DNA of 64,000 nucleotides from Candidatus Doudnabacteria bacterium (GTDB lineage: Bacteria > Patescibacteriota > Doudnabacteria > UBA920), in contig JARLHZ010000025.1 of the NCBI GenBank assembly GCA_031291995.1, positions 91,965 to 155,964 on the forward strand. Reading direction: 5' to 3'. The notes beneath the pieces are model-generated. The model had not been told where the DNA came from and searched no databases. It saw only the letters and a program-made list of their open reading frames with translations. Position numbers and translations under genes: made by a program. This document shows positions 47,006 to 63,963 of this stretch, piece by piece. The first letter of the stretch is position 1, and the number at the start of each line of letters is the position of its first letter.

Positions 47006-47018
47006 AAATATTTACATT

Positions 47019-47935: not shown

Positions 47936-47948
47936 ATTTTTTATAATT

Positions 47949-48251: not shown

Positions 48252-48277
48252 CCAAATTTTTCTTTACTAATCAATTA

Positions 48278-49291
48278 TTATGCTTGGCTTTCGTATGACT
48301 TATGGACGGCAGCAATCACCTCAGGCAATGATTCAGCTGCTATGGTAAAATCCCATCCGCCGCCTTTATCTATGGCCATTCCTTTGGGCAGCTGGCCGCC
48401 AATTGCCCAGGTCCAACCCCAAATTTCACGAGAACCTTCGCCGTACTGAACAAAAATTTTAGACCTGTTTTCACTCCGGCGCAATGATACGAACCCGTTT
48501 TTTAAAGTATACCGGTAGATATCATCGCCAAACCCGTTCACAGTGGTTAAAAATTTACCAAGTACGCTGCCTTTTTCTGGAGCATTGGTCGAGGCCAAAA
48601 AGTCTGACAACTTTTCTGCACGAACTTCGCTCGACCTATGTGAAACGCCAATATTCTTCTTAGTCTCAACTCCGAATAACTTTGGAATCATTATTTCATA
48701 TTCGTTAAACTTGTAATAATCAAGTTGTATTGCGTATATGTCAAACTGGCTGTTTCGGTTGACATAGATAATTAAATCTTTTAACCTATCTTCCATTTCG
48801 TCCATTAATATTACAAATTTAAGATTACCCTCAAATAGATTGCGGCGCATTGCTTCTAAAAGCTCGTCTGTTTTTTCTTCATCAAGACTAAAAAATTCCG
48901 TAACCTTCTGTTTAAAACTCAAATTAAATTTTATCTCGACTTCCTCATCTAAAAGATGAATAAATTCGTTAAAATCACCTTGGTGTTTCCAAAGAGCCGC
49001 TCCATAATCAAGTGCTTGGGCAACTACCGTCCTTTTGTCCGGATTTTTAAATAGTTTGGTTTCCACAATATAAATATCTCCGTCCTTATCTATCGCCAAA
49101 GCATCGATCGACCCGGACTCTGTTGGAAACTCACGCGCAGCAACAAAGAGATGCTTGTCTTCTTCAATTTCATATACTGGAATTGACTCTGGATTTTGAT
49201 GGATATAATTTTGAAGGTAATCTTCCTTTTCAAAATTAGATTTGTCTATTTTTTTGGCGTTCATACCGCCTTGGGAAACAATAATACTCAT
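48278..49291 (-). CDS. Hypothetical protein with N-terminal PD-(D/E)XK-like (Hjc/NucS-like) motif
   Basis: GSIDALAIDKDGDIYIVETKL (D...D/E-x-K arrangement) near residue 60-80; C-terminal domain unassigned. Confidence 0.45.
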   Translation of the reverse strand: MSIIVSQGGMNAKKIDKSNFEKEDYLQNYIHQNPESIPVYEIEEDKHLFVAAREFPTESGSIDALAIDKDGDIYIVETKLFKNPDKRTVVAQALDYGAALWKHQGDFNEFIHLLDEEVEIKFNLSFKQKVTEFFSLDEEKTDELLEAMRRNLFEGNLKFVILMDEMEDRLKDLIIYVNRNSQFDIYAIQLDYYKFNEYEIMIPKLFGVETKKNIGVSHRSSEVRAEKLSDFLASTNAPEKGSVLGKFLTTVNGFGDDIYRYTLKNGFVSLRRSENRSKIFVQYGEGSREIWGWTWAIGGQLPKGMAIDKGGGWDFTIAAESLPEVIAAVHKSYESQA

Positions 49292-49382
49292 ACATTATCT
49301 ATTAATTGTGAATTTAATATTTACGCCAATGGCTATAGTTGATCCCGTCTTCTAAATCTTCATATTCAACGGACATAGGGTA

Positions 49383-50120
49383 TTATTTTTCTACTGCTTG
49401 GGCTTTGGCCCTATATTGGCAAAATTCACATTCAAGATTGGATTCGGGCAAATCGGATAGGTTTAAGCAATCGTAAATATTAAAAATTGTTTGCTCTACC
49501 CAAGAGTCACTGCCGGTATAAGGGATTAGTTTGGCATCAAATTCCAGTACGCCGTTAAAACCTGCTCTGTCTTTCTTTCCATTCACGTAAAAAAAGTAGC
49601 CGGTATTGGAAACTTTTAGGCCATTTTGCCTTAACAACCACTGGTAGACTTCCATTTGCCTGCGGTAGGAGTTGTGCCATTTGGCGTCAGTTAGTTCTAC
49701 TTCGCCCTCCTTGCTGGTGGCCTTGTAATCCACCACAATATATTCTCCCGCCGAATTTTTCCACAAATCATCTATGGCCCCATAAACTAGCATATTGATT
49801 TTTTTGTGGAGGCACTGCACGCCTGTAAAGTTATGCCGCCACTGGTCCAAAAGTTCATGAGCCACAGGAACAGCGTCCAGGCCGTAAGTTTCCATAAGCG
49901 GATGTTTGGTTCCGTTGGCGCGGTATACATCAAACTCTTTTTTTAGCAAAGCGTCCACAGCCACATTCAAAGTAAATGCTGGGCCAGATGGCCTGGAAAT
50001 CCCCAACCGCCGGTCCATATAAAAACAGCGCGGACAATCCAAAAACATATCAATCTTTGATCGGCTCAATTTAAAAGGTTTATCAGACGCAGGGTTGTAC
50101 AAATTGTTTATTCTAGGCAT
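49383..50120 (-). CDS. Cas4-like / RecB-family PD-(D/E)XK nuclease with four-cysteine cluster
   Basis: N-terminal CPRCFY and C-terminal CEFCQY cysteine pairs; GAIDDL, IVVDYKAT and QMEVYQWL (QhxxY) nuclease motifs. Confidence 0.6.
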   Translation of the reverse strand: MPRINNLYNPASDKPFKLSRSKIDMFLDCPRCFYMDRRLGISRPSGPAFTLNVAVDALLKKEFDVYRANGTKHPLMETYGLDAVPVAHELLDQWRHNFTGVQCLHKKINMLVYGAIDDLWKNSAGEYIVVDYKATSKEGEVELTDAKWHNSYRRQMEVYQWLLRQNGLKVSNTGYFFYVNGKKDRAGFNGVLEFDAKLIPYTGSDSWVEQTIFNIYDCLNLSDLPESNLECEFCQYRAKAQAVEK

Positions 50121-50180
50121 TTACTTTCCTTAAAATTTTCATAAATTTAACAATACTTAATGGGTTATATCCCCCACCGC

Positions 50181-51344
50181 TTATTCGGTTTTATTGGTAT
50201 GGGAAAGCTCTTCAAACTTAGCAGCCATTGTAGGGTTGCCGCGCGTTAGTCTTTTGATTGTCAAATCTTCTGCTTTATCATTAGCGAGACGGAGATTATT
50301 TTCAGACGATAAGAGAGCCTCTTTGGTTTTCTGAAGATGGTCTATGGTTTTGTCAATTTCATCGATTGCTGTTTTAAAACGGTTAGAAGCAATCTGGTAA
50401 TTTTTAGAAAAGCCCTCTTTAAATTTATTAATATTGTCCTCAAAGTTTGTGATGTCAACATTTTGGTTCCTCACCAAAGCAAGCTCGGCTTTGTATTTAA
50501 GTGAATTCATGGCCGAGTTGCGCAGCAGGGTTATCATTGGGATAAAAAATTGTGGGCGGACCACATACATTTTGGGATGTTTATGGGATACATCAACAAT
50601 GCCGGTATTATATAGTTCATTTTCGGCTTCCAAAAGCGTAACAAGGACGGCGTATTCGCACTTCTTCTCTGTCCGATCTTTATCAAGCTCGCGTAAAAAA
50701 TCTTCATTTTTGTGTTTTGTAGCGGTTTCGTCGCCTTCATTTTTCATCTCAAACATAATAGAAATGATTTCATTGCCGACCTCATCATTTTCGCGATAAA
50801 TGTAATCACCCTTACTGCCGGATTTTGTATTGTTGTCTTTTTCGAAATACGCATTCTGAAAACCGGTCGCGCGAAGCTTGTTAAACTCGGTTTCGCAGTG
50901 CTGTTCAAGGGTTTCGCCAACCATCTTCGTTGAGAGTTTAAGCTTCATATCCTTACGGAAAGCAATTTCGTCGTCCTTCATCTTTATAATGTCGTCCTTG
51001 GTCCTGAGTTCGGCGGCAAGTTCGTCACGTTCTTTCGCAACTTTATTGACCGCTTCTGTGACTGCGAGTTTTTTCTCTATTTCTGCATTACTGTTTTTTG
51101 ATTTTATTTCGGCTAATTCAGCTTCCTTCTTCGCAATGTCCTTTTGCAATGCATTTGTAATATTTGCCTCTGCAAGTTTAACAGCAGTTTCTTTATTTTT
51201 TTCCAACATTTCTATACGCTCATGCAGTTCTTTTTCAAACTCATGATTGCGGACTTGCTTCAAAATATCGGCAAATCCTGCTTCGTCGACTTTAAAAGCT
51301 TTTTTACAATGTGGACATATAATTTCATTCATATTTTTGAACAT
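50181..51344 (-). CDS. DUF2130-like coiled-coil protein with N-terminal CxxC
   Basis: [36 protein letters not shown] start and long coiled-coil. Confidence 0.5.
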
Positions 51345-51359
51345 TAATTTTGCAACATC

Positions 51360-54323
51360 CTATATGCTCATTTTATTAAGTACGTGCTCAAACACGCGCT
51401 CTTGCACAAACTTTTTTAATTCCGGATTTTGGTCGAGTTTTTGGTACAGACTAAAATGATTATCCAATACTCCAACAAGCTCGTCCTGAAAGAGTTGGTC
51501 AAATTTTAACTTGGCTGCGTCTTTGCTGTTATTTTTTACGGAGCCTTTTAATACATGGTTATTTACCAAACGCGAACTTAAATCGTTTAAAATTACCCGG
51601 TCGCCGTCGTTAAAATTTGTTCCGTAGCGCTCATTAATTTCTTTAATGATTCTTGAAAGAGGGTCTATTGCCGCCTCGGCAATACGGCCTTCCCCTCCCC
51701 CGCCCATAGGATAAATAATTCCCTCTGTATTGTCTAATTGTATATTTACCTTGCCCTTGTTCTCAATCCTGTAAGTTTCCATATCTATTGCATCCAATAC
51801 CTCCACCGGCAACGGATTTTCCCGCTTAGGCGATTTTTTGATTAAAAATTTTAAAAAGATGAACAGCTTTTCCAGTTGTGGATCTTTAAAAGTAATTATT
51901 TGGGAAATAAAGGCATACTTTTTTAAATATTCCGCAACCGTGGTTTTAAAGCTTTCCATTTCTTCTTCTGTCAGGTTCTCGTCATTTATCCTGGCTACCA
52001 CATTGTCAATAATATGGTTAAGTTTATCCGGCGTTGCTCCACCCAAGTATTCTTCAGTAAACCCATTGATTTCAAAGTCGGTAAAAAATTTAAACCCACG
52101 CACTTCGCGTTCCAAATTGTGCAAAATGTTCGGGTCCGTCGCTTCAGACAGCACCGTGGTAGTGTAATACGGTTGGAAAGCTTCTTTAATGTCGTCCGTC
52201 TCATTTACGAAATCCAAAACAAAAGTTTCGTCTTTGCCGTACGTAGTTCTGTTTAAACGCGAAAGTGTTTGAACCGCTCTAACATCGCTGAGTTTTTTGT
52301 CCACATACATAACCGTTAGCATAGGCTGGTCAAAACCGGTTTGAAATTTTTCCGCCACAATCAAAAATTTATTTTCGTCCTTCTTAAATTCTTCAGCCGT
52401 TTGGCTTTCCGGGACTTTATTCATTTGACCTTCGGTATATTCCAGTTTTGTATCCACGTCTTTTACAGTGCCCGAAAAAGCCACCAAGGCTTTATGATTG
52501 TAGCCTTTTTCTTTAAGGTATTTATCAAAAGCAATTTTGTAACGAACCGCGTGCAAACGGGACTTTGTAACCACCATTGCTTTTGCGCGTCCCGCAATGA
52601 GTAATGCAATTTTTTCTTCAAAATGTTCCACCATAATAGCCGTTTTTTTATCAATGGCATGCTCATGGCGCTCTACATAGCCAATCATAAGCCTTTGGGC
52701 TTTTTTCTTATCAAATTCCGGGTCGTCTTCTATTTTTTTGAGTAAGCCAAAATAAGTTTCGTAAGTGGTGTAGTTTTTTAGCACATCCAAAATAAACTTT
52801 TCTTCTATGGCCTGCTTCATGGAATACAAAGAAAACGGAATAAATTTACCGGTAACCGCGTCCTTGTCTCCAAATAGTTCCAACGTCTTCTGCTTTGGCG
52901 TGGCGGTAAAAGCAAAAAATGAAAGGTTCGGGGAACTGACCTTTCTAGCCTTCATGCGCTCAATAATTTGGTCTTCAACTGTTTTAAAAACATGCTCTTC
53001 TTTTTCGGCTTGCTTTTCGGCTTCATCTAAAGTTAATACCTGACGTAAATCCGCCGCGGACTCCCCGGACTGTGAAGAATGCGCTTCGTCTATAATTACC
53101 GCAAATTTTTTTCCTTCAACTTTTTCTATTGTCTCTACAATAACCGGGAATTTCTGCAAAGTGCTTGTTAGTATTCTAACCCCGGTTTCCAAGCCCTCGC
53201 GCAGTTCGGCGGATGTTTCCACGTGCTTAACCAAACCTTTAACCTGGCTAAAATCTGTTACCGTATTAGAAAGTTGCCTGTCTAAAACCCGGCGGTCAGT
53301 TACTACAATAACGCCGTCAAATACATTTTTATTGGAATCGTCATGAAGTTCTGCAAGACGGTGCGCCACCCAGGCAATGGTATTGCTTTTGCCGGACCCG
53401 GCGCTATGTTGAATTAAATAATTTTTGCCGGTTCCATTTGCCTGCGCGTCTACAACAATTCTCTTTACGGTTTCTAATTGATGATACCGTGGAAAGATTA
53501 ATTTTTCTTCCTTTTTCTTTTTGCCGTTCTTGTCTTCTTTTTCTTCCGTCACTTCCTGAATGAAATTGCCTATTAAATCAAACACACTGTCCTTGGAAAA
53601 AATATCTTCCCACAAATAATGCGTTTTGTATTTTCCTTCCGGCGCTTCCGGATTTTTAGATGAGTTTTTGTCGCCTTTATTAAATGGCAAGAAAACCGTG
53701 GAAAGACCCGAAAGCCGGGTGGTCATAAACGCCAAGTCTGTATCTACCGCAAAATGAGTAAAGCAGCGCTTAAAAGATAAAAGTTTTTCTTTATTGTCGC
53801 GGTCGGTTTTATATTGTGATATGGCGTTAATAACATTTTGCCCGGTAAACTGATTTTTAAGCTCTATTGTAAACACCGGTAAGCCATTTACAAAAATAAC
53901 CATATCTATGGAATTTTCATTCTTGCCACTATATTTAACCTGCCTCATAACACTTAAAATATTCCCGGCATAATCGGCAACCGTCTCCGGGTTCCTGTCA
54001 TTCTGCGGTTTAAAATAAGCAAGCTTAACCCGCACTCCCCTGTCTGTAATGCCCTCACGAAGCACGCTTAACAAACCACGCGAACTAATTTCTTCATCCA
54101 CCCGAGCCAAAAACCTCTCCGCGACATCTTCCCCATACTGCTCAACCAGCTTCTCCCAAGCCTCATTTTGAGTCTCCAAAACAAACTCCAAAACCAGCTC
54201 TGCATCCATACAGAGCTCTTTATTAAAAGTTGAATTTAATCTAGATTTATACTTATGAAGCTTTATCAGCTCCTGCTCTATAAATTCCTCAAAACCCGAT
54301 TCTTTAGTGTTAGATTTTGTCAT
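51360..54323 (-). CDS. hsdR: Type I restriction enzyme R subunit
   Basis: 987 aa; Walker A HSAGSGKSNT, DEAH box VIIDEAHSSQ, helicase C-terminal motifs, N-terminal nuclease region. Confidence 0.9.
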   Translation of the reverse strand: MTKSNTKESGFEEFIEQELIKLHKYKSRLNSTFNKELCMDAELVLEFVLETQNEAWEKLVEQYGEDVAERFLARVDEEISSRGLLSVLREGITDRGVRVKLAYFKPQNDRNPETVADYAGNILSVMRQVKYSGKNENSIDMVIFVNGLPVFTIELKNQFTGQNVINAISQYKTDRDNKEKLLSFKRCFTHFAVDTDLAFMTTRLSGLSTVFLPFNKGDKNSSKNPEAPEGKYKTHYLWEDIFSKDSVFDLIGNFIQEVTEEKEDKNGKKKKEEKLIFPRYHQLETVKRIVVDAQANGTGKNYLIQHSAGSGKSNTIAWVAHRLAELHDDSNKNVFDGVIVVTDRRVLDRQLSNTVTDFSQVKGLVKHVETSAELREGLETGVRILTSTLQKFPVIVETIEKVEGKKFAVIIDEAHSSQSGESAADLRQVLTLDEAEKQAEKEEHVFKTVEDQIIERMKARKVSSPNLSFFAFTATPKQKTLELFGDKDAVTGKFIPFSLYSMKQAIEEKFILDVLKNYTTYETYFGLLKKIEDDPEFDKKKAQRLMIGYVERHEHAIDKKTAIMVEHFEEKIALLIAGRAKAMVVTKSRLHAVRYKIAFDKYLKEKGYNHKALVAFSGTVKDVDTKLEYTEGQMNKVPESQTAEEFKKDENKFLIVAEKFQTGFDQPMLTVMYVDKKLSDVRAVQTLSRLNRTTYGKDETFVLDFVNETDDIKEAFQPYYTTTVLSEATDPNILHNLEREVRGFKFFTDFEINGFTEEYLGGATPDKLNHIIDNVVARINDENLTEEEMESFKTTVAEYLKKYAFISQIITFKDPQLEKLFIFLKFLIKKSPKRENPLPVEVLDAIDMETYRIENKGKVNIQLDNTEGIIYPMGGGGEGRIAEAAIDPLSRIIKEINERYGTNFNDGDRVILNDLSSRLVNNHVLKGSVKNNSKDAAKLKFDQLFQDELVGVLDNHFSLYQKLDQNPELKKFVQERVFEHVLNKMSI

Positions 54324-54433
54324 AATCTTATAAAATACTTATAACGGTTACATAAGAAAGGCCTATATTTATTGCATTTTTTTGATAATTTTTCTAAAAT
54401 TGGTTTAACTTGTTACATAAGATAGTTTAAAAA

Positions 54434-54462
54434 TTGACAGGCGGGATACATTCGTTTACAAT
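54434..54462 (+). promoter_or_regulatory. Consensus sigma70-type promoter TTGACA-N17-TACAAT (plus strand)
   Basis: TTGACA 54434-54439, 17-nt spacer, TACAAT 54457-54462; AGGTG RBS and ATG at 54482 follow. Confidence 0.45.
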
Positions 54463-54541
54463 AGGTATATGCAGGTGCTTGATGGCCATTGAGCCATTAA
54501 GTATGCGGGCATACATTGAATGTATACCCCGCAGGCCTGCT

Positions 54542-55207
54542 TTATCTCCATTTTACTCTCCATTCGTTGAACCGGCTATTGCCCACGGCAAGCCGGATTT
54601 TTTGTACCTCCGTAGCTAATCGGCCTTTTATTTTATCGGAACCTTTATAAACCGAACTGCCAAGCAAAACATCAGCCATTTGAACTAATAATACGCCATG
54701 GCTGTCCACTTGCAAAACATCCCACAGCTGAGGAACAACTGCCGGAAGTGTAGAAATAGAATGGGTCGGTGCCTTTTTTGGCTGCCTTAAATAATCCGCG
54801 ATTAAGGTTGTCTTTTCTTCAGCTTTTAAATTTTTTTGAAGCAGCATTTTAATATAACGCAAATAACATTCCCAGGATTCCAAATAGTCTTTCGGCGCCT
54901 GGAATTTAACGTCATTTAAGTCTACAAAAAAAGAACAAAATCTCCAATTGGGTTCGTTTAACAAAATTTTCAAACAATTTAAATAATAAGGCAGAGATTT
55001 TTGCGTAACGGAGGTAAATTTAAATTCAACCCTACTACTGTCTTTTTTTAGCGCGTTGCATAACCCTTCATACTCGCTATGAAGCGCGGTAATAAGTTTG
55101 TCCGGGAACGAATGGACAATCGCGCCCACCGCAAAATACCTTACAGCCCGATTCTGCACATTAAGCGTACCCGACTCATCCAAAAAACAAAAAGTTGGTT
55201 TAATCAT
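54542..55207 (-). CDS. DUF3800-like protein
   Basis: N-terminal CFLDESGT (DESG start typical of DUF3800); 221 aa; embedded between hsdS and hsdR. Confidence 0.5.
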   Translation of the reverse strand: MIKPTFCFLDESGTLNVQNRAVRYFAVGAIVHSFPDKLITALHSEYEGLCNALKKDSSRVEFKFTSVTQKSLPYYLNCLKILLNEPNWRFCSFFVDLNDVKFQAPKDYLESWECYLRYIKMLLQKNLKAEEKTTLIADYLRQPKKAPTHSISTLPAVVPQLWDVLQVDSHGVLLVQMADVLLGSSVYKGSDKIKGRLATEVQKIRLAVGNSRFNEWRVKWR

Positions 55208-56521
55208 TTATACTTTCACTTTCCCCGTAACCACATTGGAAATTAGGGAAGATTTAAATTTGTTTAATAATTCAATTGATTTTTCTGTTTTTTCTAAAAT
55301 AGCATTAAATGTTGAAATTTTTTCATCTAAGAACTTAATAATTAAATTTTGTTCGTCTTTGCTTGGATAAATCATTTCCAACGAACTTAAGTCAAAAGGA
55401 GTGATTGCTGGGTAGCCAATGCCTTTTGAATTAAGAATGACTTGACTAATAAATCTATCGGACTGTAAGTAATAAAAAAGGTATTTTGGCAATAAGTTTT
55501 TACCAGGAGTTAATACGGCAAAACCAGTAGATGCAATAGTATTTGTATCGAGTTTATCAAAATAAGCAATGGCCTTTAAGTAAGTTCTAACTGTAGCGAT
55601 TATTGAATCGCCAACACTCACAACTCTACGAGCCCTACTTGGTGCTTTTTCAAAAGTAATTTCATTTTCTATATTTGACGCCTCTTCTCCATCCACAGAC
55701 CCAATGTCAAAATATTTAAAAGAGAAGTCGGGATCTGTGTTCTCTGAAAGAGATTTTTTATTCATTTGGGAGACTCTTTTTATTTTTTCAATATTCCATC
55801 CTTTCGGAATTTTGCCAATCCATTCGACATCGCTTTCAACATACTCAGCTTTTGGGTCAAGGCCTTTTGACACGGCATTATTAATAACAGCCGTGCGTTT
55901 TTCGCGCAGGAGTTCTATTAACTTTTGCTTTTTTTCAATAATTTGGTCAATGGTTGCAATTTTTTCGTCGAGATAATTTGCAATTTTTTCTTGCTCATTA
56001 ATATTTGGGATTAATGTTGGCAAATATTTAAAATTGCTAAAATCTAGCGTTTGTCTAACCCCTCCACCCATCCCATAATAAACTTTCTGAATGTCGTAGG
56101 CGTGAAATAAATAGTAGGTGAATTTTGAGTTTAATTTTTCACTCAATTGCAACGCTAAATAAGCTGAAGTAATTATACCTGGCTCATCAAAGTTCATATA
56201 GCCGACTCTTAAACTTTTTTTGTCATTTTGTAAGTCAGTCAGACGAAATACAATATTCCCTTTATTTATAACTTGATAAGTATTGAATGATTCTGGTAGT
56301 AATCCCTCGTTTGAGTCGATATCTTTTTGAATTATTTTACCATAGCTTAATGATAAGAGATTATTACATTTTCCCTCAATATTATTTTGTTCATTTTCAA
56401 AAGCGACTGATCGCAAGGGTGTTACATCCCAATCTTTAGGAATTTTGCCAATCCACTCAACGCCCGAGTTTTTGTATTCGGGATATTTTTTATATTCTTT
56501 TTTTAGCTGTAATTTAGGCAT
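55208..56521 (-). CDS. hsdS: Type I restriction-modification specificity subunit (two target-recognition domains)
   Basis: 437 aa; two TRDs separated by conserved helical spacer (IDQIIEKKQKLIELLREKR) and C-terminal repeat of the same. Confidence 0.85.
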   Translation of the reverse strand: MPKLQLKKEYKKYPEYKNSGVEWIGKIPKDWDVTPLRSVAFENEQNNIEGKCNNLLSLSYGKIIQKDIDSNEGLLPESFNTYQVINKGNIVFRLTDLQNDKKSLRVGYMNFDEPGIITSAYLALQLSEKLNSKFTYYLFHAYDIQKVYYGMGGGVRQTLDFSNFKYLPTLIPNINEQEKIANYLDEKIATIDQIIEKKQKLIELLREKRTAVINNAVSKGLDPKAEYVESDVEWIGKIPKGWNIEKIKRVSQMNKKSLSENTDPDFSFKYFDIGSVDGEEASNIENEITFEKAPSRARRVVSVGDSIIATVRTYLKAIAYFDKLDTNTIASTGFAVLTPGKNLLPKYLFYYLQSDRFISQVILNSKGIGYPAITPFDLSSLEMIYPSKDEQNLIIKFLDEKISTFNAILEKTEKSIELLNKFKSSLISNVVTGKVKV

Positions 56522-57732
56522 ATTTGTAAATATTGTGGAAAACGGTACGGGGTCAAGACATTTTGTGATTGAGCCTGTGGAAAAGTTTCCATTAAGGGAT
56601 TAAAGAGGTTGTCCAGGATTAACATCGGAAAGCGGCAGATCTGGTCGGCATTGTATATGCCAAGAGAGTCAAGTTTTTCTTTAGGCGACATTCCGTTCAT
56701 GCCAATACCGTCAGAGGCGCGACGGTTGTAGTAAAAATTCCAGTACTGTCCTTCTATCAGAAAATCGGAGTTACTGTTAATGTGTTCCCCCCTGGGGCAG
56801 TAAAATTCTTCGTCGTCGATCCTGTGCGTCCGTTCCACCAGGTTGTTCTTCCACTTTGCTCCGCCTGTCCACTCGGCCGCGGCTCCCAGCGGCTTTAACT
56901 GTTCGTTCCAATCCGCAAGCTTCCTCTCTGAAGCGGAAAAGAATTCCGCGCCGCCGTCCATTCGCGTGTTAATATTGTTTTGTATGTTATGGGCTCTCAG
57001 CCAGAGAATTACGGTTTGTAAAAACTTTAATCCATAAAAAGAACTTAAGGTATACGACCAGGCCAAGAATCTGGTTTTGGTCTTGGCGTCAACAATCGTC
57101 CATTGGTATTTGGGCAGAGCAAGCTTTTGGCTTTTAAACTTCTGATAAATTTCTTTCGGCAAAGCGTGTTGGTCTAAAATTTCCTTGGTATCGTACTGTA
57201 ATTGCTCAAATGCCCCAATTTCCGCATAGTTGTACAAGGCCCTGCGTTCCCCGTTAACGGTCCTAATCTTTTTCCCTTTTAGCCCCAGTCTTTTGTAAAC
57301 TCCCTTGATTTTGGAAAAAGTAAAGGCCTCCATGTCCAGCCCGGCTATTTTAAAATGCTTGTAGAGGCGTTTAAAGCCGTAGTTTAATTTCAAATGTTTC
57401 TCTGTGATGGTTTTTTCGGTATTTTCGTCAGCCGTCCGCTTGTTGGTCTTGGGCCTTCTGGACTCAAACTTTAAAAATTCAAACAGCTTTAAATCATCAG
57501 TTTTAATCTTTTCGTTGCAGGACAGCAGGCAAAGGACTTTAGAGTCAGACTGATTTTTACAAAGTTTAATAATTTCATTAACGGTATTTTTATGGCAGCC
57601 GATATCCCGGGCAATGTCTTTTTGGGGGATGTGGTCGGCAAAGTAATGGCGGGCGATTTTCAGCCGGGTGATGATCGGCCCTTCGGTTTTGCAATTGTCC
57701 TTGTAACTCATTACAATACTTTTACAGGTCAT
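56503..57732 (-). CDS. DDE (rve-type) transposase, IS481/IS30-like single-ORF
   Basis: N-terminal HTH; WTIVDAK, RMDGGAEF, NLVERTHRIDDEEF = D,D,E catalytic triad spacing; stop overlaps hsdS start by 19 nt. Confidence 0.65.
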   Translation of the reverse strand: MTCKSIVMSYKDNCKTEGPIITRLKIARHYFADHIPQKDIARDIGCHKNTVNEIIKLCKNQSDSKVLCLLSCNEKIKTDDLKLFEFLKFESRRPKTNKRTADENTEKTITEKHLKLNYGFKRLYKHFKIAGLDMEAFTFSKIKGVYKRLGLKGKKIRTVNGERRALYNYAEIGAFEQLQYDTKEILDQHALPKEIYQKFKSQKLALPKYQWTIVDAKTKTRFLAWSYTLSSFYGLKFLQTVILWLRAHNIQNNINTRMDGGAEFFSASERKLADWNEQLKPLGAAAEWTGGAKWKNNLVERTHRIDDEEFYCPRGEHINSNSDFLIEGQYWNFYYNRRASDGIGMNGMSPKEKLDSLGIYNADQICRFPMLILDNLFNPLMETFPQAQSQNVLTPYRFPQYLQICLNYS

Positions 57733-57787
57733 TGTCGTATTCTGTTTTAGTTATTACTCGTAACTAAATTATACGGCAATGGCTTGT

Positions 57788-57982
57788 TTAATTTTCAGCC
57801 GGAGCTGATCCGCCTGTGGCGGAAATGTGAAGGCCTTTATCGACTTTAAAGGTTTTAAGGTATTTGAGGTAATGACGCTGTCTTTTCCTTACTTTTCCCA
57901 AAAACCGCTTAAATTCTACCTTGGCGGCGATCACATTATGTATTGTATCCTCTATTAATATTGTGGAAAACAAGCTTGACAA
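57788..57982 (-). CDS. Hypothetical small protein (64 aa)
   Basis: ORF only; between transposase and NYN gene. Confidence 0.2.
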   Translation of the reverse strand: MSSLFSTILIEDTIHNVIAAKVEFKRFLGKVRKRQRHYLKYLKTFKVDKGLHISATGGSAPAEN

Positions 57983-58069
57983 ACGTTCATATAATAGTTA
58001 AAATAGAAACGATCGAAAGATCACGAACTCTATAGCTTAAGGGCTCCGCAAGGAGTCCTTTTTGCATGG

Positions 58070-58834
58070 TTATGAACCAGCTGGTTTTGGACCATCCATT
58101 TCTCTGTTCCAACAAATAAAATTTTTAATTTTCTGAATATCGTAAATAAACAAGCCTTGTGAGGTTAGAGACGCTAATTCACTGGCCACTCTTCGAGGAG
58201 TGGAAAAAATAAAGACCTTTTTACCATTTTGGAGCAACTGCTCAATAGGCCCCGCAAAATCGCTGTCTCCGCTCCAAAGCACGAAACAATCCGCTTCCTT
58301 TTTCTCAAAAGCAAGCATCATGTCCCGGCCAATTTCTACATCAAAATTGCATTTGCGATCTTCAATAAAGTAAGTCCCGAGTTTGTTTAACTCTCCCAGT
58401 TGCGCGTTTAGGTACTCAACCACTTCAACCTTTAACCGCCTTAAAAGCGAAGGCCGAATAAAACTTTTAAGGATATCAGTAGATGACGGAGAAATACTGG
58501 AGACATCAATAGACTTTTGCATAATTTTTACAGGTTTTGTAATACAGCCAGGTCCAAAAGCCTTAGTAAGGTCCTTATTTTCGTGTTCAGACTCTTTATC
58601 GCCAATTAAAGTACCGTTATAAATCTTAATTTCCTTGACAGCGCCAAAGGAGTCAAAAAACTGTTTGACCCTAAAAGGCTCTACATGCCAACCCAACTTA
58701 TCGGCCCACGGTCTAACATTGGCAAAATCGATATAAATTTTCGTAGAAACGCTTAAAAGCGTATCCATCTCGGAAATTCTTTCCGGGAACATTTGCGCAA
58801 GTAAGTCAATTTTTACCGTTTTGGCTTTAAACAT
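58070..58834 (-). CDS. NYN-domain (LabA/PIN-like) protein
   Basis: YIDFANV ... ADCFVLWSGDSDFAGPIEQLLQNGKKVFIFS matching NYN acidic-residue pattern. Confidence 0.75.
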   Translation of the reverse strand: MFKAKTVKIDLLAQMFPERISEMDTLLSVSTKIYIDFANVRPWADKLGWHVEPFRVKQFFDSFGAVKEIKIYNGTLIGDKESEHENKDLTKAFGPGCITKPVKIMQKSIDVSSISPSSTDILKSFIRPSLLRRLKVEVVEYLNAQLGELNKLGTYFIEDRKCNFDVEIGRDMMLAFEKKEADCFVLWSGDSDFAGPIEQLLQNGKKVFIFSTPRRVASELASLTSQGLFIYDIQKIKNFICWNREMDGPKPAGS

Positions 58835-59001
58835 AATAATGTGCTATTAGTAATGGCTGGCAATAATAACTTGGAATATGCTATGGTGTCCCTCCGGAGA
58901 ATCCGGAACTTAAGCTGTAAATAACCATTTTCCTAGACGCCGCCATTCTTGAATACCTAAGGGGATGTGATTCCTTGTCGCCCTCCCCTTTTTTATTTAT
59001 A

Positions 59002-60996
59002 TTATAGCTGCTTTAATAAATCCAATAGCTCGTTTTCCACCTTTTCTATATCTGTCTCTATGGCTTCAAGACTCCTTGGGGCTTCGTATTTGTAGAAGTG
59101 GCGGGTAAAGGGAATTTCGTAGCCGACAATACCAACTTTGCCGTCTTTGTGGTCGACTATCGATGTGTTTATCCAGACATCAGGAACGTAAGGCTTAACC
59201 TCTTTTTCAAAATATTGTTTAATGTCCATTTCGTAAGGCACATTTTCATAGTCGCGCAGTTCGCTGTCGGGTTCTATATTACCGTCTTTGTCGGTGCATA
59301 TAACAGCATTTTCATCACGCTCGCCCAGAGCATCTACAACAATTTTAATAATTGTAGCGCTTTTTTTAAGATGTTTAAAATACGTTTGTATTTTTTGGAC
59401 AAACAATTCCCTACTGTTTATGGGAGCTTTAAAATCCTTGGCTAACTGGCCAAAAATAGTAATAACTTCCTCCATTTCTTTGGCTGGAAGTTTTTTAAAG
59501 GCGTTTTCGTGTGATATTTTGTCCAGGGAGTCTTTAGTAACTTCAAACTTAAGCTTTAGCGGCCGTTCAATAGTTATTTGTCTGTAAGCAAAATCCGTGG
59601 TTATAAAGATTTTAGAGAATTCACCCTCCTCGTACTTTTCGTATAGCTCAACAATTTTCTTTTTAGACTCCGCGTCTATTTCATGTCTCTTACTACCAAG
59701 ACTTTTCCGAGTTTTTTTAAAAAACGTACGGCCGTCTATAAGTTGAACTTTGCCTTTTCTTTCCTTAGATTTTCTGTTGGTAACAAACCATAGGTAAGTG
59801 TTTATGCCTGTGTTATAAAAAAGTTGGTCCGGCAATGCTACAATGGCTTCCAATAAGTCTTTTTCCAGTATCCACCTGCGGATTTCGCTTTCGCCACTTC
59901 CGGCGTCTCCGGTAAACAGTGGAGAACCATTATGAACAATAGCTATGCGGGAGCCACCGTCTTTTTCCGGTTTCATTTTGGAAATAAGGTGCTGTAAAAA
60001 CAAAAGCTGGCCATCGGAAATACGGGGCGTACCCGCGCCAAACCTGCCGGCGTAACCGCGGGCGGCTTCGCGTTCTACAGAGTCTTTGTCTTTTTTCCAG
60101 TCAACCCCATAGGGTGGATTGGAAAGCCCGTAGTCGAAAACCTCGCCAAAAAATTGGTCGTTGGCAAGCGTGCTCGCTTTGGAATGGTCTTTCTCTCCGC
60201 CGCGAATAAGGTCAGGGTCGTCACCCTTTATAAGCATGTCGGACTTAGCCATGGCGTAGGTAATGGAGTTTAACTCTTGACCGTAGAGAAAGATATCGGC
60301 CTCCTTGTTAATTTTAGTAAGAATGTAATCTTTAGACACACTTAACATTCCACCGGTGCCGCACGCAGGATCATATATTTTTTTAATAACATGGGGTTTT
60401 TGAAGATCCTTAATGTCCGGTGAAAAAAGCAATTCAGTCATAAGTTCTATTACATCGCGCGGGGTGTAGTGTTCTCCGGCAGTTTCATTGGACATTTCAG
60501 AAAATTTGCGGAGCAACTCTTCAAAAATATGCCCCATTTGGTAGTTGTCCACCTTGGAAGGATGAAAAGCAACGCCGTTTAATATTTGAATAATTTCGAA
60601 TAATAAATTTCCGCCTTCTAATCTCTCTAGCTGTTTGTTAAAATCAAACTTTTCAAAAATATCCTGAATATTTTTGCTATAACCGTTTATATACTGCTTA
60701 AAGTTTTTTGCCAAATGTTTTGGTTCGCCAAGGATCGTTTTAAAATCATAATCGGAAATATTATAAAAAGCCGTGCCCGAAGTTTTTTTAAGAATTGGGT
60801 CCAGATCGTTTATTTTGCCTTTGTATTCGTTGTACTTTTCCAAAACTTTTGGTTTTGTATCCGCGAGAATAGAATCCAGGCGTTTTAAGACCACCAGCGG
60901 AAGTATTACGTCCTGGTATTCGTGCTGTTTCCAACCTCCGCGCAAGATATCGGCAATATTCGAGATCATTGATGTTTTTTGGCTAAAATTTTCCAT
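59002..60996 (-). CDS. hsdM: Type I restriction-modification DNA methyltransferase subunit
   Basis: HsdM_N-like start, GEHYTPRDVIELM, motif I IYDPACGTGGML, motif IV NPPYG; 664 aa with C-terminal extension. Confidence 0.9.
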   Translation of the reverse strand: MENFSQKTSMISNIADILRGGWKQHEYQDVILPLVVLKRLDSILADTKPKVLEKYNEYKGKINDLDPILKKTSGTAFYNISDYDFKTILGEPKHLAKNFKQYINGYSKNIQDIFEKFDFNKQLERLEGGNLLFEIIQILNGVAFHPSKVDNYQMGHIFEELLRKFSEMSNETAGEHYTPRDVIELMTELLFSPDIKDLQKPHVIKKIYDPACGTGGMLSVSKDYILTKINKEADIFLYGQELNSITYAMAKSDMLIKGDDPDLIRGGEKDHSKASTLANDQFFGEVFDYGLSNPPYGVDWKKDKDSVEREAARGYAGRFGAGTPRISDGQLLFLQHLISKMKPEKDGGSRIAIVHNGSPLFTGDAGSGESEIRRWILEKDLLEAIVALPDQLFYNTGINTYLWFVTNRKSKERKGKVQLIDGRTFFKKTRKSLGSKRHEIDAESKKKIVELYEKYEEGEFSKIFITTDFAYRQITIERPLKLKFEVTKDSLDKISHENAFKKLPAKEMEEVITIFGQLAKDFKAPINSRELFVQKIQTYFKHLKKSATIIKIVVDALGERDENAVICTDKDGNIEPDSELRDYENVPYEMDIKQYFEKEVKPYVPDVWINTSIVDHKDGKVGIVGYEIPFTRHFYKYEAPRSLEAIETDIEKVENELLDLLKQL

Positions 60997-61008
60997 ATTT
61001 AGATTTTG

Positions 61009-62145
61009 TTATTTGGTAAAGAGGTCAATATATTTTGTTAAGTAGAATATCCTGTCTTTTTTAAAACCCGTTTTTTCGGAAAATAAACCAAGTCTTTCAA
61101 AATCAGTGGCAATAGCTGATGCAGTTGGGAATGTAACAGAAAGCATGGACTCAATATCTCTAATAGTTACCACAGGCTGGGAAAATAACAGCCTTAACAG
61201 CTCTTTGCCCAGTTTTTGGCGTTTAACGCCCATACCTGTTTCAATCGCGTTTTCGTATTTTTTGCGAAGATCAATAATTTTTTCCAAGGTTTCTCTTGAG
61301 CCTTTGGCGGTTTCCAAAACGCCCGTAAGAAAAAACCGTATCCATTGCTCTATGTCGTTGCTTTCACGAACGCGCGAAAGGCCATCGTAATATTGCGGAC
61401 GATGTTTTTCAAAAAAATCAGATATATACAAAGTAGGCTTTTGTATAATACCTAGACTTACCAAATGCAGAGTAATTAATAGCCTGCCTACACGCCCATT
61501 GCCGTCTAAGAATGGGTGAATTGTTTCAAACTGGTAATGCGAAATTGCAATTTTAATTAAGTCCGGAATATCAATATTTTTGTTGTGCCAAAATTTTTCC
61601 AGGTCGCTAAGTAATTCTGCAAGTTCTTCGTGATGCGGCGGAATAAATACGGCATCCTTTAAAGTTGCGCCGCCCAGCCAATTTTGGCTTTTGCGTATTT
61701 CGCCCGGCATTTTGGAAAAACCCCGAACGCTTGAAAGCAAAACTTTGTGAGTATCTTTTACCAACCGCATTGAAAGAGGCAGCTTTTCCAATTCTTTGAT
61801 GGAATAATTTATGGCTTTAACGTAATTTTGTACCTCTTCCCAGTCATCTCGTTTTTCGGGCTTAATTTCAAGCTGCGGCAATAGAGCTTCGTCTAATTTT
61901 GTGCGAGTTCCCTCTATTTTGCTGGAAACTGTAGCTTCTTTGGCAATGTGCATTTTTATAAAAAAGTCCACATCGGGGATAAGTTTGGAAAAAGCATTAA
62001 GTTCTCCAAGATAGCGCATGGCATCCGAAAGCAGCAGATTAATGCGTTTGTCTGCCCATTCAAAGTTAGTATTTACAACAGAAGGTTGGAAACTCTTATA
62101 TCCAAGCTGTTGTTTGTATGTTCCTGCCTTATATTTATATGCCAT
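61009..62145 (-). CDS. Fic-family protein with C-terminal wHTH-like region
   Basis: [12 protein letters not shown] active-site motif; SSKIEGTRT inhibitory-type motif; 13 nt upstream of hsdM, same strand. Confidence 0.85.
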
Positions 62146-62257
62146 AGGCCAAGTATAGCACGTAATATAGTCTTGTCAAATTAAATATTTAGGCTTTAAC
62201 CTTTAATATAGTAATAATGAATTAAAACTCAATTTACAATTCCCCCCAAAGCTTACC

Positions 62258-62289
62258 ATATCAAAAGCCCCGGCTTTTGTACGGGGCTT
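62258..62289 (-). terminator. Intrinsic terminator (minus strand)
   Basis: AAGCCCCG-loop-CGGGGCTT followed on the minus strand by TTTTGAT. Confidence 0.5.
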
Positions 62290-62928
62290 GAGAAATTGGC
62301 TTTCAAAGGAAAACGAGATTTGGGTTTACTCGCAAGCCGGGGGGAAGGTTACAGCTTTTATTTTTGATTCCTCAGGCAGCCTACCGCCTTTGAAATGGAC
62401 TGGCGTCCAACCCGACGCCGCTTGTCCAATACACTCAGCAAGACAATTGCCTCTGCAGAAGTTTTGTCTCACTTTGTTGAATGTAGGGTGATTGCAGTTT
62501 ATTTGCACCCGCTTTAAGAACAATACCTTTAATTAAGGTTCCGGGAACCGCCTTACTCCACCCTATTGTGTTTCGGGCATGCGTTACTTCTTGTTCTATG
62601 AGAAGTTGTTCCGCCATTTCCTATGAAAGCCGACACTAAATAAGACGTGTGCGGAAATTTTTTGTTACATTTTTCCTAAAGCTTCTTCGGTTTCAAACAT
62701 TCCAATATAGGTGTGCTTTTGCGCTTCAAAAGCGGCAAAAAGTTCCGTTTCCGCCAGCGGCACTCCCCGCTACGCGACAAAAAGCTCGACAAAAAGGGGT
62801 CTGGAGCTATTATTTAAAATTCGATAGGAGAGTTTAAATCAGGTAGCGTCAAAGCGTCGGAACCCCGACGCAGGCTGGTCGGGGCTGGTTGAACTCCGAC
62901 GTTCCAGATAAAGCCCTGGAAGTCGGAG

Positions 62929-62963
62929 CAGGCCGATGACCTACTCCTTACCATGGAGTTGCT
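62929..62963 (-). repeat. Partial duplicate (about 35 nt) of the tRNA-Thr D-loop/anticodon-arm region
   Basis: GATGACCTACTCCTTACCATGGAGTTGCTCTACCA identical to 63101-63135 inside the tRNA. Confidence 0.8.
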
Positions 62964-63074
62964 CTACCAACCCCGACGCCCCTTTGGGGGTCGGGGCTCC
63001 GACCTTTGACGCCGCGAGGTTAAAGCTGGCAGCGTCAAAGCGTCGGAGCTGAGCAACCAATAAAAAAATTTTCC

Positions 63075-63150
63075 TGGAGCCGTTGATCGGAATTGAACCG
63101 ATGACCTACTCCTTACCATGGAGTTGCTCTACCAGCTGAGCTACAACGGC
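63075..63150 (-). tRNA. tRNA-Thr (anticodon GGU), CCA encoded
   Basis: Minus-strand cloverleaf: acceptor GCCGTTG/CAACGGC, D-arm GCTC-AGCTGGTA-GAGC, anticodon arm ACTCC-ATGGTAA-GGAGT, T-arm ATCGG-TTCAATT-CCGAT, discriminator U, CCA. Confidence 0.8.
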
Positions 63151-63174
63151 ACTAAGAAAATTTTTTTATTAACA

Positions 63175-63963
63175 TCAGCCAATTAAATTTGAGGCTTGGC
63201 CCATGGCTTGGGCTTTTTGGGTTTGGCCGGCTTTTTGGTAGGCGGCGCTGGCCGCGGAGTAGTATTTGGCCGAGGGCTCGAGGGAGGCCGCTTTTTCAAA
63301 GTTTACGGCGGCTTCCTGGGCGTTCCCGTCCTGTTCCAGGCACAGGCCTAGGTTATAATAGCGGTTTGGCTGGGTGGAATCAAGTGCCAGGGAAGCCTTG
63401 TAACTTTCGGCCGCTTTATGGAAATTTTTAAGCTGATAGTGGCAAAAGGCCAGCCGCGCGTGGTAATCGGGATTGGCCGGGCGGTGGTTGGTTAAATAAA
63501 TATAGACATCGGAAGCGTCGCTAAAATTTTCCCGGGAAATATAAAATTTTCCCAAAGCGTCGTAATGGTCAAAGTTAGCCGGCTGAAGTTTGATGTTATT
63601 GAGGTAGTATTGTTCATTGCGAACCTCGCTGGTCGTAAGCGGTTTTGGCGGAGCCGGTTTGGCCGCGCCGGTAAATTTATCGCCAAAGATTTTTTTCATC
63701 TGATAGCCGGTAACGGAATGCGGCCTGAGGTCTTTGGCTTCGAGCACAAAATTCCACAGTTTCTTTAGCCACAGCCGGAGTGTGCTGCGGATTTTGGAAA
63801 GTTCGATAACCGGCAGGCCTTTGGCCGCCAATTTTTGGCCGGATGACGCTTCCGCGCTGCCGCTTTGGCCCGCGGCGGCTTCGGGTAGTCTGCGGATAAT
63901 AATCAACAGCATCCCTAACACCGCCAGAATGAAAATTATATTGGGAATAATTTGGTAAGACAA
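63175..63963 (-). CDS. Membrane-anchored TPR-repeat protein
   Basis: N-terminal TM; C-terminal TPR-like repeats (YYNLGLCLEQDGNAQEAAVNFEKA...). Confidence 0.6.
   Translation of the reverse strand: MSYQIIPNIIFILAVLGMLLIIIRRLPEAAAGQSGSAEASSGQKLAAKGLPVIELSKIRSTLRLWLKKLWNFVLEAKDLRPHSVTGYQMKKIFGDKFTGAAKPAPPKPLTTSEVRNEQYYLNNIKLQPANFDHYDALGKFYISRENFSDASDVYIYLTNHRPANPDYHARLAFCHYQLKNFHKAAESYKASLALDSTQPNRYYNLGLCLEQDGNAQEAAVNFEKAASLEPSAKYYSAASAAYQKAGQTQKAQAMGQASNLIG

Follow-up and report, generated by a model that had tools for sequence, protein, structure and literature searches.

What are two predicted nuclease genes and an insertion sequence (IS) doing among the genes of a Type I restriction-modification (R-M) system? 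The question is posed by a stretch of 64,000 nucleotides from an uncultured Candidatus Doudnabacteria bacterium (GenBank assembly GCA_031291995.1, contig JARLHZ010000025.1, positions 91,965 to 155,964 of the forward strand), referred to here as the window, in which hsdM and hsdS are separated by a gene for a NYN-domain protein and an IS, and hsdS and hsdR by a gene of the DUF3800 family. A first-pass annotation had proposed either that the IS disrupted an hsdMS operon and may have silenced hsdS or that the NYN and DUF3800 genes are accessory components that ride with the R-M system. Our findings support the second proposal and add several features that the first-pass annotation had missed: two conserved structured RNAs, one associated with the NYN gene and one with the DUF3800 gene, a third RNA of the Rfam class DUF3800-V, and a SoFic gene. 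The RNA components are the most distinctive part of the locus, and they suggest that each nuclease gene may belong to a two-gene module in which a small RNA is transcribed toward it from the opposite strand.

The anatomy of the locus can be described with high confidence. It is one operon-like defense cluster on the minus strand, in the order SoFic, hsdM, NYN, (IS), hsdS, DUF3800, and hsdR, and in the map of open reading frames (ORFs) every gene from 51360 to 62145 lies on that strand. This map and domain searches bore out the placement and strand earlier assigned to the ORFs, including all three hsd genes, and the spacings reported before were reproduced, with 2480 nt between hsdM and hsdS, an overlap of 19 nt between the transposase gene and hsdS, and 0 nt between hsdS and the DUF3800 gene.

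The NYN gene (58070 to 58834, minus strand; 254 amino acids [aa]) encodes a LabA/MARF1-like predicted RNase with a NYN/PIN-like fold and conserved acidic residues, which matched the Pfam NYN family (PF01936) above its gathering score (6.2e-14). Its predicted active-site residues are D36, D165, D190, and D192. The DUF3800 gene (54542 to 55207, minus strand; 221 aa) also exceeded the gathering score of its Pfam family (PF12686; 1.3e-08, 36.1 bits against a cutoff of 21) and encodes a predicted RNase HII-like nuclease. The DUF3800 family is characterized by a DE...QxxD signature and by similarity to RNase H2 (PMC7736814, PMC10910872), and the residues of the window protein match, D10-E11, E61, D138, and Q176-x-x-D179 being invariant and D10, E11, D138, and D179 making up the predicted active site. 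The closest structural relatives of this protein are RNase HII and H3, not transposases; a search of Protein Data Bank (PDB) sequences with the DUF3800 profile returned noise only, and a second DUF3800 gene was sought in the window and not found.

Genes embedded in Type I R-M loci are enriched for defense functions, and the PDC families of PADLOC, among them a DUF3800 family, were derived in that way (bioRxiv 10.1101/2024.01.29.577857). The families PDC-M04A (DUF3800) and HEC-09 (NYN) were picked up through embedding in Type I R-M, BREX, DISARM, or Hma systems (Payne et al. 2024, bioRxiv 10.1101/2024.01.29.577857), in a text that makes no mention of noncoding RNA. Both window proteins match these models weakly (PDC-M04A, 1.8e-12; HEC-09, 6.7e-07, over the C-terminal part only). 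The DUF3800 protein had no match to the retron DUF3800_VII model, and the partner family PDC-M04B had none among the 14 neighboring proteins scanned.

At the NYN gene, a structured element (model R2; 58008 to 58067, plus strand) is convergent with the gene and ends at its stop codon. It is preceded by a predicted promoter (57976 to 58004, plus strand; TTGACA-17-TAAAAT) that matches the consensus at 11 of 12 positions. A MAFFT alignment based on sequence only gave no consensus fold, while re-anchoring followed by covariance-model alignment did. Alignments of the latter kind lean toward the structure of the model, but matches found without a seed and controls with shuffled and slid sequences argue against an artifact. 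Of 76 NYN loci, 75 contained a single R2 match each, and the DUF3800 loci searched had none; across 73 distinct sequences, 94.9% of cells were paired and 12 of 15 pairs showed compensatory changes, and none of 500 shuffles attained the observed pairing or covariation score.

The strand of the NYN-associated element is indicated by its promoters, its wobble pairs, and its folding. Promoters matching at least 9 of 12 consensus positions were found on the strand opposite the gene in 58 of 71 NYN loci, compared with 12 of 71 on the gene strand, and in 49 of those 58 the -10 box ended 3 to 5 nt from the model boundary. Among the non-Watson-Crick cells, A.C or C.A, each of which is G.U on the other strand, outnumbered G.U by 50 to 13. 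In 70 of the 73 sequences a further A.C reads as G.U on the other strand and so completes a stem of 9 bp; UUUGC or UUUUU comes next, giving the shape of a terminator. The consensus fold (alifold) scored -20.8 on the plus strand against -14.4, and relative to shuffles the z score for folding of the window element was -2.4 for the plus strand but -0.8 for the minus strand. The unpaired linker AAGC..UAGA is highly conserved in the consensus sequence, which suggests recognition by a protein or other trans-acting factor, since a cis-antisense RNA alone would not need it. From this pattern of conservation, we regard a separate plus-strand small-RNA gene, convergent with NYN, as a well-supported prediction.

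The element associated with DUF3800 (model R1; 54469 to 54542, probably plus strand) is about 70 nt long and forms a three-helix junction, consisting of a closing stem and two hairpins, that abuts the DUF3800 stop codon. Its predicted promoter (54434 to 54462, plus strand; TTGACA-17-TACAAT) again matches the consensus at 11 of 12 positions. Exactly one copy was found directly beside DUF3800 in 10 of 12 distinct loci. The covariance model, built from 7 sequences, had three matches outside its seed, in metagenome-assembled genomes of Woesebacteria, Methylacidiphilales, and Thermotogae, and none in 366 kb of other loci. Pairing reached 94% of cells, compared with 28-39% in slid controls; compensatory changes occurred in 16 of 28 pairs, and 0 of 500 shuffles equaled the observed pairing or covariation score. 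All 9 loci tested had an opposite-strand promoter with at least 9 of 12 matches, while the gene strand had one in a single locus of the 9, and both the alifold score (plus strand, -38.3, versus -32.6) and wobble at variable positions (9 versus 2) favored the plus strand. This element, too, is probably a separate opposite-strand small-RNA gene convergent with its nuclease gene, although the prediction is less well supported than that for NYN.

Could the two elements instead be structures in the 3' untranslated regions (3' UTRs) of the nuclease mRNAs, transcribed in the sense direction and acting as stabilizers, terminators, or autoregulatory cleavage sites? The elements start 0-10 nt from the stop codon in nearly all loci, as this explanation would predict, and at DUF3800 several observations weaken the case for a convergent RNA gene. 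The gene strand accommodates two invariant U.G pairs (19-20 cells) and has the larger raw fraction of paired cells (94% versus about 89%); both strands of the window sequence fold well (z scores of -3.9 and -4.0); and beyond the motif the plus strand shows no clear terminator. The ratio of A.C to G.U cells at NYN, the terminator stem completed on the other strand in 70 of 73 sequences, and a window sense strand that folds no better than shuffles are all contrary to it. Only the opposite strand has conserved sigma-70-type promoters at a constant spacing from either motif, and alifold scores point in the same direction. We therefore consider sense-strand 3'-UTR structures very unlikely. A version of this reading in which the TTGTCAA box after the elements served as the -35 of the downstream hsd genes was adopted for both elements and then reversed by the promoter scan, the promoters across loci, the wobble pairs, and the folding; the box is TTGACA on the other strand.

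Neither RNA matched Rfam 15: there was nothing at an E value of 1 or lower over positions 47000-63500, nothing relevant at 10 or lower over 54300-54560, and no match at gathering score for the new RNAs in 30 related loci. A pattern scan of viral contigs for both motifs returned only chance matches in coding DNA. Literature searches recovered neither a functional study of DUF3800 RNAs nor a description of a NYN-RNA pair. As far as the literature and databases searched show, then, the two RNA classes, the near-obligate pairing of NYN with its RNA, and the interpretation as convergent small-RNA genes are new. DUF3800 genes were previously found to be accompanied by 11 unrelated and unexplained RNA motifs, which occur in either orientation and several of which have terminators (Weinberg et al. 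2017, PMC5737381). The window resembles these cases, DUF3800-I to DUF3800-XI, in having structured RNA beside a DUF3800 gene and in containing DUF3800-V itself above the Rfam threshold. The RNA abutting the window DUF3800 gene differs in matching no Rfam model at an E value of 10 or lower, and it would be a further, twelfth, structure class.

Both nuclease genes recur in other genomes in positions that show them to be independent of the IS. DUF3800 orthologs were 48-73% identical to the window protein, and the statistics for this subfamily rest on 12 distinct loci because a scan of a genome collection gave only 5 relative loci. Three distinct Type I loci contained the gene, in the orders hsdM-DUF3800'-x-hsdS-x-x-DUF3800-hsdR-GmrSD (L001 to L003), hsdM-x-hsdS-DUF3800-hsdR (L006), and hsdM-DUF3800-hsdS-hsdR (L011), as did a Type III locus in the order res-DUF3800-mod (L004 and L005); elsewhere it followed a Type ISP fragment (L009 and L010) or stood alone (L007 and L008). 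The IS was absent from all of the DUF3800 ortholog loci listed, and the R-M loci of Type I and Type III among them had no transposase. The hsd genes of L011 are the closest to those of the window (hsdM, 55%; hsdS, 41%; hsdR, 45% identity), yet DUF3800 lies between M and S there and between S and R in the window. In L006, conversely, DUF3800 is 72% identical to the window protein, but identity falls to 26% for hsdM. Positions 6252-7277 of L001 comprise its second DUF3800 gene (248 aa), which matched the retron-type PADLOC model DUF3800_VII (1.8e-14), and behind it a gap of 279 nt with an opposite-strand TTGACA and a hairpin-rich stretch that has no Rfam match; this gap may hold another DUF3800-associated RNA.

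The NYN family is very large, with 1877 matches; the window NYN protein had no match in a collection of plasmids. The arrangement hsdM-NYN-hsdS-x-hsdR occurs without an IS in L018 to L021, and NYN was also found in the order NYN-EcoRI_methylase-AAA_13-GmrSD/HNH (L022 and L023) and standing alone (L024 and L204), as does the closest relative, at 82% identity. Among 80 metagenomic NYN loci, 15-17 of 60 upstream neighbors were DNA methyltransferases (9 N6_Mtase, 6 N6_N4_Mtase, and 2 Eco57I), and about 19 of 51 downstream neighbors were R-M components (7 ResIII, 4 Methylase_S, 4 RE_endonuc, 3 Eco57I, 2 EcoRI_methylase, and 1 GmrSD). Nucleotide homology defines the extent of each unit sharply: the NYN unit is bounded by the start codon and the -35 box of the small-RNA promoter (57975-58837 in the window), and the DUF3800 unit by the start codon and a point at about 54456 (about 54456-55207). 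The nuclease ORFs have no conserved promoter of their own and start at, or a few nucleotides from, the stop codon of the upstream gene.

Judged by these comparisons of sequence, NYN and DUF3800 are autonomous compact cassettes, not disruptions. Without the IS, they recur within R-M loci of both Type I and Type III, in methylase contexts of Type II/IIG-like character, and as stand-alone units, and they seem to move among these R-M and methylase settings. The earlier suggestion that they are accessory components riding with the R-M system is thus upheld by the IS-free Type I and Type III loci, and recurrence inside other Type I systems, which had been put forward as a check, was found for both genes. 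Broad conservation of the two as housekeeping neighbors, named at the same time as a finding that would count against the idea, was not what we observed, since the site that they occupy differs from one R-M locus to another and some copies lie outside R-M altogether. Other R-M loci contain further embedded ORFs of 125-341 aa between hsd genes (L018, 10168-10950; L001, 8769-9951; L006, 3504-4529; L021, 3355-4020), which had no significant Pfam or PADLOC assignment apart from one weak match to PDC-S47 (3.9e-04); it is possible that they are additional cassettes of the same kind.

The IS, by comparison, is recent, having inserted into the spacer between NYN and hsdS after the modules were in place. 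It spans 1413 bp (56544 to 57956, minus strand), boundaries that we set by blastn against two independent copies from other metagenomes (L025 and L026, 86% identity), with which homology begins at the left member of a 15-bp perfect direct repeat (57957 to 57971; GTTTTCCACAATATT as read on the minus strand) and ends no more than 3 nt from the right member (56529 to 56543; 57956 to 56544/56541). All three copies are flanked by 15-bp direct repeats that differ from copy to copy, and their two terminal sequences are identical except for one base at the right end of L026. Because homology ends at the repeats and the repeats are copy specific, we read them as a target-site duplication; the direct repeats that the first-pass annotation recommended looking for are therefore present, while the inverted repeats are imperfect (about 17 of 30 positions with a 1-nt offset, the best part being a subterminal block of 13 nt, ACAT..TGTGAT.G). 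The predicted empty site reads TTGTCAAGCTTGTTTTCCACAATATTTACAAATATG. The window contains no second copy.

The transposase ORF (56503 to 57732, minus strand; 409 aa) had been labeled IS481-like, which is reasonable: the best match was NCBIfam IS481 (1.3e-13, 51 bits, under the cutoff of 224), and the invariant residues D181, D259 (DGGxEF), and E300 (VERTHR) fit a DDE core. Target duplications of 4-15 bp are reported for the IS481 family (ISfinder). The element resembles that family in its single DDE transposase with an N-terminal helix-turn-helix (HTH), in the DGGxEF and VERxHR core motifs, and in a target duplication at the top of the family range; it departs from it in its score under the NCBIfam cutoff, the lack of a Pfam rve match, the poor terminal inverted repeats, and the absence of a transposase stop codon inside the element. 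The transposase profile matched PDB sequences only at the HTH, with no relative of the core. Homologs (n = 255; 397-417 aa) lie mostly on contigs of about 1.5-2 kb, as repeats would be. As the ORF has no stop within the element, it runs 41 nt past the IS end and stops inside hsdS, which accounts for both the overlap with hsdS and the variable length of the homologs.

A 64-codon ORF (57788 to 57982, minus strand) had been listed between NYN and the transposase, and we rejected it as a gene. It consists of the noncoding IS leader and 26 nt of flanking DNA, has no family matches, has its codons 10-60 within the IS, and carries indels in the other IS copies; its substitutions fall on the three codon positions in the ratio 7:8:12, without third-position bias, compared with 35:28:112 for the transposase.

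In some NYN loci a DnaA-box-like sequence, TTATCCACA, closely precedes the -35 box of the NYN-RNA promoter at a constant position (26 of 72 loci with at most 1 mismatch, 18 of them exact), compared with 3 of the 72 for its reverse complement as a control (positions in L124 to L203). The window version, TTTTCCACA, lies inside the target duplication at 57957-57971 and so is now present twice. The IS copies in the window (57972-57990) and in L025 (1040-1082) both sit a few nucleotides downstream of GTTTGTCAAG, which hints at a preference for promoter-like AT-rich spacers, with two cases only.

Did the insertion break the operon, as had been suggested? The idea that the IS and the embedded genes interrupted an hsdM-hsdS operon, that the Type I system is decaying or silent, and that the embedded genes are incidental was correct in taking the IS for a genuine insertion with a target duplication, and several features lend it substance: 1413 bp of IS now separate NYN from hsdS, the native spacer with its conserved TTATCCACA-like box has been duplicated around the element, and the region directly upstream of hsdS has no strong predicted promoter on the minus strand. 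What is predicted there is a possible hybrid promoter (56529 to 56556, minus strand; TTGACC-16-AATATT, 9 of 12) formed from the right target duplication and an outward -35 in the IS end. No ORF or promoter was broken, however. On one side, the IS comes within 5 nt of the -35 box of the NYN-RNA promoter, which it left intact; on the other, it lies 7 nt upstream of the hsdS start codon (ATG). The element has the orientation of the operon, lacks a terminator, and has a transposase ORF that reads out of it into hsdS, so that silencing of hsdS, while possible, is not implied, given this readthrough and the outward TTGACC.

Nor do the R-M genes look decayed, since hsdM, hsdS, and hsdR all appear full length, with catalytic motifs present, in what seems from their sequences to be an intact R-M operon. 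The methyltransferase gene hsdM (59002 to 60996, minus strand; 664 aa) matched Pfam N6_Mtase (2.7e-59) and HsdM_N (1.7e-21) as well as the PADLOC model MTase_I (1.5e-260, coverage 2-663 of 661), and its product contains the motifs NPPY and DPACGTGG. The hsdS gene (55208 to 56521, minus strand; 437 aa) encodes two target-recognition domains (two stretches of Pfam Methylase_S; PADLOC Specificity_I, 2.4e-100, covering 9-437), and its ORF is intact, residues 11-437 aligning with the hsdS product of L011, the closest relative. The restriction and translocase subunit is encoded by hsdR (51360 to 54323, minus strand; 987 aa), which matched Pfam HSDR_N, ResIII, SWI2_SNF2, and T1R_D3-like domains and TIGR00348 (hsdR; 5.6e-61, under the subfamily cutoff of that model) and retains a DEAH box. 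Together with the fact that NYN and DUF3800 hold the same kinds of positions in loci free of the IS, these observations make a broken operon with incidental passengers quite improbable.

If the IS is not the explanation, what might the cassettes do? We propose that NYN and DUF3800 are nuclease/RNA-antidote modules, resembling toxin-antitoxin (TA) systems, that ride in the R-M operon as a second line of defense, a reading that in our judgment could equally well prove right or wrong. Each module would pair the gene for a predicted metal-dependent nuclease (a PIN-like RNase in NYN, an RNase HII-like enzyme in DUF3800) with a short structured RNA gene that would be read from its own sigma-70-type promoter on the opposite strand toward the 3' end of the nuclease gene; the NYN RNA would end in a hairpin and U-run at the NYN stop codon. 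The small RNA may serve as a cognate antidote or regulator by binding the nuclease protein, in the manner of type III antitoxins and of AbiF/RCd22, and/or by pairing in antisense with the 3' end of the nuclease transcript, as in some type I systems. Infection or loss of the R-M system would then upset the balance of RNA and protein and free the nuclease, leading to abortive infection. More tentatively still, the two nucleases with their convergent structured RNAs may be two members of an unrecognized class of protein-RNA defense module, in which the RNA would be an antidote or a cofactor that confers specificity.

A precedent for such backup is PrrC, an anticodon nuclease encoded in the EcoprrI Type Ic locus, an RNase that is thought to back up restriction that has been neutralized and that is kept latent by contact with the R-M complex. 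PrrC combines an ABC-ATPase with a HEPN-like nuclease, and the "rlo" genes of Campylobacter hsd loci are likewise embedded. The window modules share with PrrC an RNase gene between hsd genes on the same strand, the hsdS-hsdR position being that of DUF3800 here, and by analogy they would be cotranscribed with the R-M genes as a backup defense and may ride with them as PrrC does with EcoprrI. They are unlike PrrC in having NYN and RNase HII-like folds, with neither an ABC-ATPase N-terminal domain nor a HEPN-like nuclease C-terminal domain, and in having structured small RNAs of their own, which PrrC lacks. PrrC is almost exclusively embedded in Type I R-M loci (Payne et al., bioRxiv 10.1101/2024.01.29.577857).

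RNA antidotes have precedents elsewhere. The closest parallel understood from experiment is AbiF/RCd22, in which a conserved RNA motif (abiF) beside the toxin gene turned out to be an antitoxin of type III-like character, binding the toxin (PMC12373285). With AbiF/RCd22 and with ToxIN, CptIN, and TenpIN, the window modules would share a nuclease toxin, a neutralizing structured RNA beside it, and phage defense through abortive infection. In ToxIN-type systems the RNA is a tandem repeat that lies upstream on the same strand and is processed by the toxin, whereas here there is no such upstream repeat and the RNA is single copy, downstream, and convergent, with its own promoter; the toxin folds also differ (ToxN/AbiQ and HEPN versus NYN and RNase H).

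The convergent geometry, in which the predicted small-RNA promoters point at the 3' end of the gene, resembles that of some type I TA loci with convergent antisense RNAs, such as par/fst RNAI-RNAII, txpA/RatA, and bsrG/SR4 (for a review of type I systems, see PMC6563280). In these, transcription of the toxin gene and of the small RNA proceeds head-on, so that the 3' ends meet, and the RNA is equipped with a promoter and a terminator of its own. The toxins of type I systems are small membrane peptides, and their antitoxins act by base pairing only and do not conserve unpaired sequence across distant relatives; the partners of the window RNAs are not small hydrophobic peptides but nucleases of 254 and 221 aa, and unpaired sequence is conserved. 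Finally, in type VII retrons a reverse transcriptase is fused to or next to DUF3800, which is the effector domain (Mestre et al. 2020, PMC7736814). The window protein shares with these an RNase H2-like DUF3800 effector with the DE...QxxD residues and an accompanying structured noncoding RNA, but the locus has no reverse transcriptase and no match to the DUF3800_VII model, which the second DUF3800 protein of L001 does match.

Besides the uncertainty of strand at DUF3800, several points weigh against a toxin and its antidote. The predicted toxins are large enzymes, unlike type I toxins. In the NYN pair, which was examined for it, there was no complementarity or consistent base pairing between the small RNA and the NYN translation start. 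No tandem-repeat arrays occur in 54000-62400; the RNAs are single copy and convergent and do not form an upstream array as in ToxIN. HEC-09, a distant relative of the NYN protein and the sole NYN candidate to have been put to an experimental test, failed to protect against the phages used (bioRxiv 10.1101/2024.01.29.577857). The RNA genes themselves are predictions, their promoters and terminators being consensus matches in organisms whose promoters are poorly characterized, and the DUF3800-V RNA of this locus was sought beside the other NYN and DUF3800 loci examined and was found at none of them.

A different function altogether would be regulation of the R-M operon itself, the nucleases and small RNAs processing the polycistronic mRNA and thereby setting the ratio or timing of modification and restriction, as a posttranscriptional counterpart of the C-proteins of Type II systems. 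The cassettes do lie between methyltransferase and specificity or restriction genes (M-NYN-S, mod-NYN-res, res-DUF3800-mod, and S-DUF3800-R), the nuclease ORFs begin at or near the upstream stop codon without a conserved promoter of their own, and transcription from both directions would yield double-stranded stretches in the operon mRNA. We nevertheless judge this unlikely, because the majority of NYN units, and DUF3800 units in some cases, have no R-M context (L007 and L008, L024, and L204), which implies that the nuclease-RNA pairs function independently of it, because the same cassette serves unrelated R-M families, and because strong conservation of unpaired RNA positions is needless for antisense interference. 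Still less probable is the idea that the units are selfish mobile cassettes that insert behind genes, preferentially in R-M operons, with the structured element as a single-stranded recognition site and no benefit to the host. Their sharp boundaries, from start codon to RNA promoter, their varied positions in related R-M loci, and their occurrence in unrelated loci at higher identity than that of the host genes are what mobility would produce. Yet the units have one structured end only, with neither terminal repeats nor target duplications flanking them; RNase HII and H3 rather than transposases are the structural kin of DUF3800, and NYN is an RNase fold without a known role in DNA transposition. 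A conserved promoter aimed into the element argues for a transcribed RNA, and the scan of viral contigs recovered neither motif beyond chance.

If nuclease/RNA-antidote modules are the correct interpretation, the orphan DUF3800 RNA motifs described in 2017 may gain an explanation, and RNA-antitoxin systems would be extended to two new nuclease folds. If the two modules do belong to an unrecognized class, those motifs would also gain a common architecture and a testable function, and bacteria of the candidate phyla radiation would appear to plug such modules routinely into their R-M operons as a second line of defense. One of the new RNA classes accompanies nearly every sampled member of a very large family and the other a subfamily of DUF3800, and the head-on arrangement of a nuclease ORF and a small RNA with its own predicted promoter gives definite form, as a module of two genes, to what had been an RNA motif beside a gene. 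Since the modules are short (about 0.8 kb) and have sigma-70-type promoters, the hypothesis is directly testable in Escherichia coli.

The DUF3800-V RNA of the window (RF02964; 58852 to 58947, plus strand) is a full-length match to its Rfam model (57.7 bits against a gathering score of 37.4; E value, 3e-10). It is oriented opposite to the operon, and three G-U pairs fit the plus strand only. A weak promoter-like site (58812 to 58840, plus strand; TTTACC-17-AATAAT, 9 of 12) ends 11 nt before the Rfam match, and a terminator-like hairpin with a T-run (58950 to 58999, plus strand) follows it and abuts the hsdM stop codon; the fold of 58852-59000 comprises a G+C-rich hairpin and then UUUUUUAUUU. 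This RNA is not adjacent to a DUF3800 gene, the nearest being 3.6 kb away. Its immediate neighbors are hsdM and NYN, and nucleotide homology places it outside the NYN unit.

Upstream of hsdM, and ending 12 nt from it, is a SoFic-type Fic gene (61009 to 62145, minus strand), a full-length match to the PADLOC SoFic model (4.7e-115; coverage 12-377 of 361) with Pfam Fic_N and Fic domains and the motif HPFxDGNGR in its translation; its score of 175 is under the cutoff of 550 for the NCBIfam SoFic equivalog. A candidate promoter for the whole operon lies upstream of SoFic (62152 to 62179, minus strand; TTGACA-16-TATACT, 11 of 12, with a TG before the -10), identified by consensus match only. The spacer between SoFic and the tRNA gene beyond it (62303-62640) contains a weak subthreshold match to the Rfam manA RNA (18.4 bits, where the gathering score is 55.2; E value, 0.53), most likely by chance.

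The theme of a defense island continues downstream of hsdR (47949-51344), with genes for a DUF2130 protein (50181-51344), a PD-(D/E)XK/Cas4-like nuclease (49383-50120), and a 337-aa protein (48278-49291) that matched PADLOC PDC-S11 (2.2e-16), and with an unassigned ORF of 100 aa. Beyond these, in the region 44652-47005, are a second transposase gene, of the IS3 type and unrelated to the IS481-like one (44652-45491; Pfam rve, 8e-22), and beside it a gene for a UvrD/GajB-like helicase fragment of 396 aa that looks truncated (45815-47005). On the other side of the cluster, a 37-nt internal fragment of tRNA-Thr, from D-loop to T-stem, is duplicated at 62933-62969 on the same strand as the tRNA-Thr gene (63075-63150) and about 165 nt from it. 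This fragment could be the scar of an old integration at the tRNA, although a search for tRNA-Thr attachment-site repeats bounding an island found no matching repeat at the far side of the defense cluster. Elsewhere in the window, a tRNA-Ile gene (4815-4891) is predicted to have the anticodon TAT (UAU), an uncommon way for bacteria to read AUA.

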